Made by a program: the position numbers and the translations under genes. From Candidatus Levyibacteriota bacterium (GTDB lineage: Bacteria; Patescibacteriota; Microgenomatia; Levybacterales; UBA12049): a DNA stretch of 64,000 nucleotides. Under the pieces are notes generated by a model. It worked only from the letters and a program-made list of their open reading frames with translations, was not told where the DNA came from and made no database searches. Position 1 is the stretch's first letter. Each line of letters starts with the position of its first letter. Below are positions 6,589 through 8,276 of the stretch, piece after piece. The stretch lies in the NCBI GenBank assembly GCA_963722305.1, contig CAVRKE010000002.1:40566-104565 (forward strand), read 5' to 3'.

Positions 6589-7290
6589 TTAAACTCCGGG
6601 GGCCGGATTAGAAGGCGGCGGTGTCGGCGATGTTTCCGCGGGAGCCGCTGTCGCTTCAGCCGGAGCTTCAGTTGCTTCCGGTTGAGCTTCTGCAGCAGTA
6701 GGTGAAGCGGCAGAAGGTTCACCACGAGTTATTGGTATCTCTGTACGAATCCCAATACGTGCCCTATCTTCATAACCTTTGATTATCCTTGCTAGAGTTT
6801 CCAAGGCTGCTCTCGCTTCAGGTGATTCTGGCATTCCATTGGCCTCTGTATCTGTGGTTTTATCAAGTACTTCTCCTGCCTCTGATTGACCTGCTTCTGT
6901 AGCTGACGTTGCTGCTGAAGCATCTGTGGCAATTGCTTGATTCATTCCATGCAAAAGATCAGCTGCTTCTTGAGTCTGATTCGCATCCGCGGTAACTGAT
7001 GCATTCATGTCGTGTAAAAGGGCAGTCGCTTCAGCTACTGGACCTCCGGAAGGTGTAGCCAACACTTGACCTGCTTCTCCAGGTTGTCCTAAGATTACAG
7101 GATTAACTCCGGGTTCTCCAGCCGCTGGTTGAAAAACCGACGTATCCGGTTGCCTTGCTCCTGATGCTGATTGTACTCCCTCTACTGGCGCAGGCGTAGC
7201 AGCAATTGGACTCACATCTGGTTGTTGCCCTACTCCTGTTGGTACTTCTGATGTTCCTCCTGGTCCTCCCATATAATATAGTATGAACAC
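6589..7290 (-). CDS. Pro/Ala/Thr/Gly-rich low-complexity protein (hypothetical)
   Basis: 233 aa with internal repeat LLHDMNASVTADA / LLHGMNQAIATDA. Visibly GC-richer than flanking DNA. Confidence 0.4.
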   Translation of the reverse strand: MFILYYMGGPGGTSEVPTGVGQQPDVSPIAATPAPVEGVQSASGARQPDTSVFQPAAGEPGVNPVILGQPGEAGQVLATPSGGPVAEATALLHDMNASVTADANQTQEAADLLHGMNQAIATDASAATSATEAGQSEAGEVLDKTTDTEANGMPESPEARAALETLARIIKGYEDRARIGIRTEIPITRGEPSAASPTAAEAQPEATEAPAEATAAPAETSPTPPPSNPAPGV

Positions 7291-7321
7291 ACTGAGAAAG
7301 CTTTGTCAATATGAAAAAATT

Positions 7322-8173
7322 GGGTAATCCCACCCTGTTGGTACAAAATCGTTAGAATATGATTATGTACCATTTAAAACAAGTACCTACGGATGCCCAG
7401 ATTAAAAAGTTTCTCAGAAGAACTGTTTTTGGTAGAAATATCTTCTGTCCAAAGTGCAAATCCTGGAATATTGTTCGCTTTGAAAAAAGATACAGATGTA
7501 GACAATGTCAGATTAAGTTCTCGCTGTTTTCCCATACCTGGCTTTGCAATGTGAAGATTCCTTTGCAGAGATTTTGGTTAATTCTCTGGTGCTGGACAAA
7601 ACAAATGCCGGTTAAACAGACTGAAGATCTAACTTCTTTGTCTGAGAAGGGAGTCAGACATTACTTTGACTTGTTCAGAGAACAATTACCAAGAGATCAG
7701 AGGCTTCTAGAGCATATTGTCCAGCTTGATGAGGCCTACTTTGGCAGATTTGGTAATACCGCACTTCTCATGGGAAAGGAGAGAGGAACCAGAAAGCTTG
7801 CTTATCAAATCCTCTCCTCTGATGCCCCAGCGAAGAAAGATGCAATTGATTTTGTTAGAACTTACGTTAAACCAGAGTCTCAACTAAATACAGATGGCTC
7901 TACTATTTACAAAAATATTGATAAGTATTATCCTCTATTCCATATGACAGACATTCACAAGAAATTTGAGTTTACCAACACCTCTGAAATTGAAGGAATG
8001 TTTGGCGTTTTAAGGACTTTTATCCGGAGGATGTACCACCATGTCAGTGAAGAAAAGCTTGAAGAATATGTCTGTGAATTTTACTGCAGATTTTCCAGAC
8101 CGGAAATGTTTAAATCTCCTTACCATTACTTGCAAAACACGCTACATGCTTTACCAACAGGGTAGGAGAACCC
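7322..8173 (+). mobile_element. IS1595-family insertion sequence (ISXO2-like), 852 bp, with 22-bp imperfect TIRs (GGGTAATCCCACCCTGTTGGTA / reverse complement of TACCAACAGGGTAGGAGAACCC, 19/22 identical) and 8-bp direct target duplication AAAAAATT (7314-7321 and 8174-8181)
   Basis: The TIRs and the target-site duplication were read directly from the sequence. An 8-bp duplication is characteristic of IS1595. Confidence 0.75.
7359..8165 (+). CDS. IS1595-family (ISXO2-like) DDE transposase
   Basis: N-terminal Zn-finger CPKCKS...RCRQC. DDE-region motifs QLDEAYFG, NTDGSTIYK, FTNTSEIEGMFGVLRTFIRR. Confidence 0.8.
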   Translation: MIMYHLKQVPTDAQIKKFLRRTVFGRNIFCPKCKSWNIVRFEKRYRCRQCQIKFSLFSHTWLCNVKIPLQRFWLILWCWTKQMPVKQTEDLTSLSEKGVRHYFDLFREQLPRDQRLLEHIVQLDEAYFGRFGNTALLMGKERGTRKLAYQILSSDAPAKKDAIDFVRTYVKPESQLNTDGSTIYKNIDKYYPLFHMTDIHKKFEFTNTSEIEGMFGVLRTFIRRMYHHVSEEKLEEYVCEFYCRFSRPEMFKSPYHYLQNTLHALPTG

Positions 8174-8276
8174 AAAAAATTCTTAATGGTTTGAACTAAA
8201 TGTCTTCCGTGGTAAAGATATTCAATGGTTTGATTTCGTTTCACTCAATCAAACCACTTCGCTACACTTCGTTTGC

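Follow-up and report, generated by a model that had tools for sequence, protein, structure and literature searches.

A divergent IS1595-family insertion sequence of Patescibacteria and its preference for sites 12 nucleotides upstream of -35 promoter hexamers

An insertion sequence (IS) of 852 bp lies in a 64,000-nt stretch of DNA from Candidatus Levyibacteriota bacterium (assembly GCA_963722305.1, contig CAVRKE010000002.1, positions 40,566-104,565 of the forward strand), which is referred to here as the window. It is flanked on one side by the 3' end of lon and on the other by the promoter of a gene that runs from 7272 to 6589. This IS is very likely to be an intact, autonomous element of the IS1595 family whose choice of insertion site is tied to promoters: it goes in upstream of them, at a distance set from the -35 hexamer. 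The features of the locus, in window coordinates, are as follows.

7322..8173, plus strand: complete insertion sequence of 852 bp, bounded by inverted repeats and an 8-bp duplication; a divergent clade, placed with the IS1595 family
7322..7343, plus strand: left terminal inverted repeat, GGGTAATCCCACCCTGTTGGTA, 22 bp
8152..8173, minus strand: right terminal inverted repeat, with the reverse complement GGGTTCTCCTACCCTGTTGGTA, identical to the left repeat at 19 of 22 positions
7314..7321, no strand: left copy of the target-site duplication, AAAAAATT, abutting the left end of the IS and identical to 8174-8181
8174..8181, no strand: right copy of the target-site duplication, AAAAAATT, abutting the right end of the IS
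7359..8165, plus strand: transposase gene, 268 amino acids and a stop codon, the only long open reading frame (ORF) in the IS
about residues 69-108 of the transposase: helical region between the zinc ribbon and the DDE domain
7353..7358, plus strand: TAGAAT, which may be the -10 box of the transposase gene and precedes the second in-frame ATG (7365) by 6 nt; read from the sequence
6589..7272, minus strand: neighbouring gene of 227 amino acids, rich in Pro, Ala, Thr and Glu and of low complexity, transcribed away from the IS; a called gene with exactly this product is in the public record
7304..7309, minus strand: TTGACA, -35 hexamer of the neighbouring gene (promoter scan), 12 nt from the left tip of the IS (the 8-bp duplication and CATA)
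7280..7285, minus strand: CATACT, -10 hexamer of the neighbouring gene, after an 18-nt spacer and 7 nt before the ATG at 7272; a leaderless-type layout

What did the insertion do to the neighbouring gene? Read outward from the left tip of the IS, the DNA consists of the 8-bp duplication, 4 nt and TTGACA. A consensus scan finds the whole promoter, TTGACA-N18-CATACT, with 10 of 12 consensus matches within the 49 nt that separate the IS tip from the ATG at 7272. The insertion disrupts neither the coding sequence of the neighbour nor its core promoter, which is intact, and the IS replaces only DNA more than 12 nt upstream of the -35 hexamer. An earlier note on this DNA had placed the start of the gene at 7290, 30 bp from the IS, and had suggested that the insertion displaced its promoter or supplied an outward one. 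These points are not supported. The public gene call starts at the ATG at 7272, so that the distance is most likely 49 nt, and the GTG at 7290 lies upstream of the -10 box CATACT and would therefore be outside the transcript from this promoter. The native promoter stands complete between the IS and the gene, and the consensus scan detected no promoter-like site facing out of either end of the IS. The effect of the insertion on the expression of the neighbour is probably small.

The layout of 8 bp, 4 nt and TTGACA is also present at two other loci with copies of the element, L001 and L003, and at five sites of the Patescibacteria metagenome-assembled genome (MAG) FK_Sedi_B_Bin.322. In the P0043 subfamily, whose transposase is 64% identical and whose terminal repeats are different, it is found in six of the seven distinct left flanks, and in the P0002 subfamily (90% identity) it is found at both sites. 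A subfamily with 69% identity has TTGACA, TTGCAA, and TTGCAT at offset 12, counted from the tip of the IS. The 12-nt pattern is thus kept in subfamilies of 100, 93, 90, 69, and 64% amino-acid identity, which differ in their repeat sequences.

How sharply is this distance fixed? Extra sites were collected by scanning metagenomes with a degenerate left-end pattern; 10 of the 36 hits were left out, of which seven were an unrelated conserved sequence (GGGTCCGCGC...) and three had no recognisable right end. Among 71 unique outward flanks, 20 carry TTGAC at offset 12, while the expected number at a single offset, given the window's own TTGAC density, is 0.09 (Poisson P about 6e-40). Five flanks have it at offsets 10, 13, or 14, and all other offsets up to 38 together contribute four; in the opposite orientation TTGAC occurs twice in total. 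The subfamilies of 69% and 58% identity were added after this pool had been made and brought it to 80 flanks. A match of at least 5/6 to TTGACA at offset 12 is then seen in 23 of the 80, compared with 0.73% at offsets 20-99 (P about 4e-30), and TTG alone in 29 of the 80, compared with 2.3% (P about 3e-27). The offset-12 hexamers are mostly perfect, with TTGACA in 16 of 20. The hexamer adjoins the left end of the IS in 18 cases and the right end in five, so the orientation is biased and not fixed.

Could TTGACA be part of a longer IS? This was rejected: the duplications fix the boundaries of the element and the 12 nt between tip and hexamer differ at every site, and for these reasons the hexamer is assigned to the target DNA and not to the IS. 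Because related copies keep the 12-nt distance at many unrelated genes, a target preference is the better explanation of why the IS lies so close to a gene start. The duplications themselves tend to be A/T-rich, following NAAATTTN across the 71 flanks, and the duplication in the window, AAAAAATT, agrees with this tendency.

The hexamers beside the IS are in most cases parts of real promoters. When TTGAC stands at offsets 10-14, a -10 box matching TATAAT at 5/6 or better follows after a spacer of 16-19 nt in 18 of 25 flanks; the background, taken from the 164 other TTGAC sites in the window, is 6.7% (binomial P about 2e-16). The flanking genes, among them groES and a DsbA-like gene, are directed away from the IS. 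This clade of IS inserts just upstream of sigma-70-type promoters.

Many of the promoters next to the IS leave no more than 5-9 nt between the end of the -10 hexamer and the ATG (L004, L011, L018, L020, L026, L031, L033, and L050). The same short distance is found in the neighbouring gene of the window (7272-7309, minus strand) and apparently in the transposase gene (7353-7367, plus strand), and the window has 12 such closely spaced pairs of -10 box and ATG at long ORFs. A -10 box placed 5-9 nt before the start codon suggests leaderless mRNAs. As for the transposase gene itself, TAGAAT at 7353-7358 is a possible -10 box, and no -35 match was found upstream of it.

The element that makes these insertions is well delimited. 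A search for the terminal-repeat pattern with up to three mismatches finds two places in the 64-kb window, both of them ends of the IS, and the pattern has no match in 100 shuffles. Neither blastn nor tblastn reveals another copy of the IS in the window, and an Rfam scan of the window gives no RNA family at gathering score. By the ISfinder description, elements of the IS1595 family make 8-bp target-site duplications and have short terminal inverted repeats. Both are found here, in the window and at other loci. All loci taken together provide 15 distinct exact duplications of 8 bp, three more of 8 bp in which the two copies differ at one position, and a single duplication of 7 bp. Since the 15 exact ones belong to other insertions of the same or related elements, in unrelated sequence, the duplication in the window is not a chance match. 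The 22-bp inverted repeats (19/22) around an 852-bp element, the identical 8-bp direct repeats at 7314-7321 and 8174-8181, and the view that an 8-bp duplication is typical of the element, all proposed in the earlier note, are confirmed by the alignment of the ends, the pattern scan with its shuffles, and the further duplications; so is its description of a single ORF with the zinc finger and DDE motifs of IS1595, on the evidence of the Pfam matches, the invariant cysteines, and the triad that are described below.

Two further observations concern the ends of the element. Each tip of the IS (7322-7335 and 8160-8173) is a GGGT-N6-ACCC mini-palindrome, as are the ends of the P0043, P0002, and P0009 subfamilies; the loop differs among subfamilies, and the mini-palindrome is absent from the subfamily of 58% identity. 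Together with the T-rich duplication the tip gives a weak terminator-like score (7335 to 7322, minus strand). There is also an exact 11-nt match, CCTGTTGGTAC, between the neighbouring gene (7235-7245) and the core of the left repeat (7334-7344), 99 nt apart. The idea that the IS was drawn to its site by a repeat-like sequence in the neighbour was rejected, as the CCTGTTGGTAC core is not enriched in other flanks (3 found, 2.7 expected), and the match is probably due to chance.

To which family does the transposase belong? Residues 158-245 match the Pfam model DDE_Tnp_IS1595 (PF12762) with 45.7 bits against a cut-off of 27, and the same domain is precomputed for nearly all of 120 homologues among the matches listed. 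The NCBIfam model of the IS1 transposase gives 21.5 bits against a cut-off of 100, which does not place the protein in IS1. The Pfam and NCBIfam matches are thus to IS1595, and weakly to IS1, and not to the Mutator or IS256-like families. In alignments of 117 and of 55 homologues, C30, C33, C47, and C50 are invariant, as expected of an N-terminal zinc ribbon, and so are D124 (in QLDEAYFG), D179 (in TDG), and E212 (in EIEGMFG), which we infer to be the catalytic residues. R219, seven residues past E212, is at least 90% conserved in both alignments, so that the protein has the D, D, E triad, the basic residue seven positions after the third of these, and the RNase-H fold that characterise the family. 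AlphaFold, run on the alignment, gave a confident model (predicted local distance difference test 88, predicted template modelling score 0.84) that consists of a small beta-ribbon (residues 38-47), a three-helix region, and an alpha/beta core. A search by sequence found no solved relative of the transposase in the PDB.

Features shared with the IS1595 family are the one ORF, which encodes an N-terminal CxxC...CxxC zinc ribbon and a DDE domain, the short inverted repeats at the ends, which begin with GGG, the 8-bp duplication, and a length below 1 kb. The element differs from the annotated members in its sequence and in where the clade has been seen, namely Patescibacteria and groundwater or sediment metagenomes. 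The nearest annotated proteins, from PLSDB plasmid records, carry the labels IS1595 family or ISCsp2 and are only 22-27% identical over about 90% of the length, which is why the element is regarded as divergent. A predicted placement as a divergent member of the IS1595 family is supported by these comparisons. The protein database holds 996 homologues of the transposase, nearly all of 263-270 and mostly of 266-269 amino acids, and many come from contigs of roughly 1 kb.

Is the element mobile? All 852 bp recur without a difference at positions 475-1326 of L001, a 4.3-kb ENA contig with a different gene context, where the copy is flanked by the 7-bp duplication TAAAATT. The left end (7322-7343) recurs in L001, L003, L010-L015, and many metagenome loci. 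In FK_Sedi_B_Bin.322, from the GTDB genomes, 12 contig ends stop in a closely related IS, and three left/right pairs of these ends have exact shared 8-bp duplications; the genome therefore has at least nine insertion sites. The junction seen in the window is present in an independent Logan assembly of the same locus (L002), whose contig breaks off 28 nt into the left end of the IS, the usual behaviour of assemblies at repeats. The Lon protein encoded beside the IS has 83% identity with its counterparts in Candidatus Levybacteria and other Patescibacteria. Species with a 89-91% identical Lon have no IS at the position after lon, and their intergenic DNA and the next gene differ. The element looks recently active, and it appears to be a functional one, intact and autonomous, from a clade that is abundant in metagenomes of Patescibacteria, or candidate phyla radiation (CPR). 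The earlier note had called the insertion recent and intact, which the complete ORF, the identical second copy, and the relatives without the IS bear out. It had also proposed a search for further copies and for an empty site; the former exist, and the latter was not found. Look-ups of the neighbouring proteins of the window returned only the same insertion (L002), and none of the collected loci contains any of the reconstructed empty sites.

One full-length copy, at L003 (CAZWMJ010000006.1; 93% protein identity; duplication TAATTTTT), comes from a MAG labelled 'uncultured Gammaproteobacteria'. Besides this MAG, the only named host of the IS is one Patescibacteria MAG. The Gammaproteobacteria label could be an error of binning or labelling, or it could reflect horizontal transfer. 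Metagenome contigs that cross the IS are often chimeric, with the left flank of one site joined to the right flank of another (L017, L019, L021, L022, L025, L068, L073, and L075), and 8-bp duplications can be paired across contigs, as between the left flank of L020 and the right flank of L019 or the left flank of L073 and the right flank of L075. The left-end pattern also hits another conserved sequence, GGGTCCGCGCACCCTGTTGGCAC, at L028, L032, L039, L045, L046, L049, and L058; it has identical neighbours in several metagenomes and shows no IS features.

The surroundings of the insertion look variable. The 227-amino-acid neighbour has no Pfam or NCBIfam match and no counterpart at the same position in close relatives: in L064 lon is followed directly by a PMT_2 gene, and in L065-L067 an unrelated ORF of 142 amino acids takes the place of the neighbour. 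Homology between the neighbour and this ORF was considered and rejected, since none was found. The position looks like a variable slot, possibly for surface proteins. The neighbouring gene, described in the earlier note as GC-rich, has a guanine-plus-cytosine content of about 0.47-0.52, which is higher than the 0.41 of the window and makes the description apt only in relative terms. On the other side, between the IS and lon and just past the lon stop codon (8277, minus strand), there is a perfect 10-bp inverted repeat, TGGTTTGATT / AATCAAACCA, at 8226-8256. It may be the lon terminator; the terminator scan did not call it.

How might such a spacing arise? In the mechanism that we consider most likely, the 268-amino-acid zinc-ribbon/DDE transposase would bind the 22-bp terminal repeats, and the transposition complex would select sites where a -35-like hexamer (TTGACA, chiefly its TTG) begins 4 bp past the 8-bp staggered cut. 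The target would be cut with this stagger and the element joined to it, and repair would produce the duplication, in the window AAAAAATT. The hexamer would then be 12 bp from the future tip, so that the IS would come to lie immediately upstream of a sigma-70-type promoter, with the -35 box, the spacer, the -10 box, and 12 bp of native upstream DNA left intact. The transpososome would read the hexamer directly, and in small, gene-dense genomes purifying selection would then purge most hits on intragenic hexamers, leaving a set of surviving insertions dominated by real promoters. Direct readout followed by purging carries a little over half of the weight in our assessment. It is favoured by clearly intragenic insertions that could be rebuilt from paired flanks, because three of five keep a TTG-type hexamer at offset 12 (TTGACT, TTGTGA, and TTGCAT). 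It is favoured, too, by the quality of the hexamers, which are mostly perfect at offset 12, compared with mostly weak -35 boxes in those candidate promoters of the window that were anchored only on a pair of -10 box and ATG. The geometry may also fit, since the hexamer and the 8-bp cut would have their centres about 11 bp apart, which is one helical turn.

The transposase or transpososome might instead dock on RNA polymerase bound to the promoter, or on region 4 of sigma-70, in which case the distance would reflect protein geometry. The overwhelming association of the hexamers with complete promoters would suit such tethering, as would the outward direction of the flanking genes and the presence of the motif on one side only, though the transpososome is two-fold symmetric. 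Yet the enrichment of -10 boxes could come from selection against gene disruption alone, the intragenic insertions with TTG-type hexamers (L008/L014, L047, and L073/L075) have no recognisable -10 box, and the 268-amino-acid protein is modelled as a zinc ribbon, a helical DNA-binding region, and a catalytic core with no extra domain. We regard tethering as a tentative alternative, to be taken seriously though unlikely. Could selection have produced the pattern on its own, from insertion that is random or merely prefers A/T? The A/T-rich duplications and the gene density of CPR genomes are in keeping with survivors being confined to a short neutral stretch upstream of promoters, and a survey has found IS1595-family elements over-represented between co-directional genes (PMC9208149). 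Selection alone, however, cannot yield phasing to a single base, with 20 flanks at one offset, five at its near neighbours, and four elsewhere, since insertions still further upstream of a promoter should do no more harm; copies that disrupt genes exist in the data, moreover, so that selection is incomplete. This explanation is highly improbable.

Two readings bear on the window itself. It is very unlikely that the insertion cost the Pro/Ala/Thr-rich gene its native promoter, or that an outward promoter in the left end of the IS drives the gene: this reading draws on the mere 49 nt between the IS and the start codon, and on the replacement by IS DNA of whatever part of a UP element or operator lay upstream of -48, and it is contradicted by the complete promoter in between, by the absence of a promoter-like site facing out of the left end, and by the same arrangement at about 20 unrelated genes. 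The suspicion of a relic that no longer moves, or of an artefact of assembly, which could be raised by the single copy in the window and the missing empty site, is hardly credible in view of a full-length ORF with all the family-invariant residues, an identical copy elsewhere, the same junction in an independent assembly, and many copies in a related genome.

Several points weigh against our interpretation of a promoter-linked IS1595 element that reads the hexamer directly. The spacing preference is strong, yet it has exceptions: roughly one insertion in three lacks a -35-like hexamer, and some of the insertions lie within genes and interrupt them (L007/L013 and L053). All flanks come from natural populations that have undergone selection, in which intrinsic preference and selection are not fully separable, and they were counted singly because many contigs crossing the IS are chimeric. 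The enrichment of good -10 boxes fits the recognition of promoter-bound RNA polymerase equally well. No exact empty site for the insertion in the window was found, the intergenic DNA of the closest relatives not being alignable, and the pre-insertion sequence, ...CAATATGAAAAAATTCTTAATGG..., is a reconstruction from the flanks and not an observed allele. On the side of the protein, two family models fall just below their cut-offs, the Pfam Zn_ribbon_IS1595 (PF12760) with 25.3 bits against 25.4 and the NCBIfam equivalog-domain model transpos_IS1595 (NF033547) with 74.7 bits against 75, the latter over profile positions 2-214 of 215.

Which other elements behave in this way? The eukaryotic retrotransposon Ty3 inserts at the start sites of RNA polymerase III, where its integrase makes use of contacts with TFIIIB; for the IS clade described here, a protein partner of that kind would be hypothetical. 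Among bacteria, the TnGBS conjugative elements, ISLre2, and ISKra4 target sigma-A promoters and insert upstream of the -35 box, at a fixed distance of 15-17 bp from it (Guerillot et al. 2014, PMC3942029). They encode Mutator-like transposases, their promoter targeting was called unusual among prokaryotic transposases, and the insertion upstream of promoters was interpreted as a way of avoiding gene disruption (PMC3942029). Like them, the present clade inserts a short and constant distance upstream of the -35 box of sigma-A/sigma-70 promoters and leaves the promoter intact. In contrast to the Mutator-like transposases of p-MULT 3/4, its transposase is of the IS1595 type, and the element is much smaller. 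The distance from the junction to the -35 box is 12 nt, compared with 15-17 (13-17) nt in TnGBS, ISLre2, and ISKra4. Orientation differs as well, since in most p-MULT 3 elements it is the right repeat that adjoins the promoter, whereas here the left end predominates (18 to 5). The IS1202 group offers a partial parallel as a DDE-type IS that keeps a fixed distance of a few bp from a short functional DNA site, the dif/pdif Xer site; it belongs to another family, uses another site (5 bp from the XerC box), and has a fixed orientation (PMC10132070). The large survey cited above found ISLre2 elements, like those of IS1595, over-represented between co-directional genes, and the spacing to the -35 box was not analysed there (PMC9208149). 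We found no earlier description of promoter targeting by IS1595 elements, or of IS elements in CPR, in the open-access literature, and earlier knowledge of either is possible.

An IS1595-type element with a target duplication is routine, and its target choice is not. The element is a new divergent member of a known family, and its -35-linked choice of target adds a new form of a behaviour that an unrelated family displays. Among bacterial DDE transposases, integration upstream of promoters had been described for a single superfamily, that of TnGBS, ISLre2, and ISKra4. To find it with a different and sharper spacing in a much smaller transposase, unrelated to theirs, points to a convergent strategy for avoiding harm, one that fits the roughly 1-Mb, gene-dense genomes of uncultivated Patescibacteria. 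On balance it is probable that a small IS1595 clade of the CPR, with a 268-amino-acid transposase and an 852-bp element, has independently evolved an intrinsic preference for integrating exactly 12 bp upstream of sigma-70 -35 hexamers and has thereby converged on TnGBS and ISLre2. If so, the clade would represent a 'safe-haven' strategy in streamlined genomes. It would also offer a minimal system for studying how a DDE transposase senses a promoter, possibly through promoter-bound RNA polymerase, and the IS is a compact candidate for tools of promoter-proximal DNA integration. Its copies account for the contig breaks that recur in CPR assemblies, and for the chimeric joins there. For the biology of these organisms, the insertions mark real promoters where none had been mapped, of the form TTGACA-N17/18-TAnnnT and often placed 5-9 nt before the ATG.

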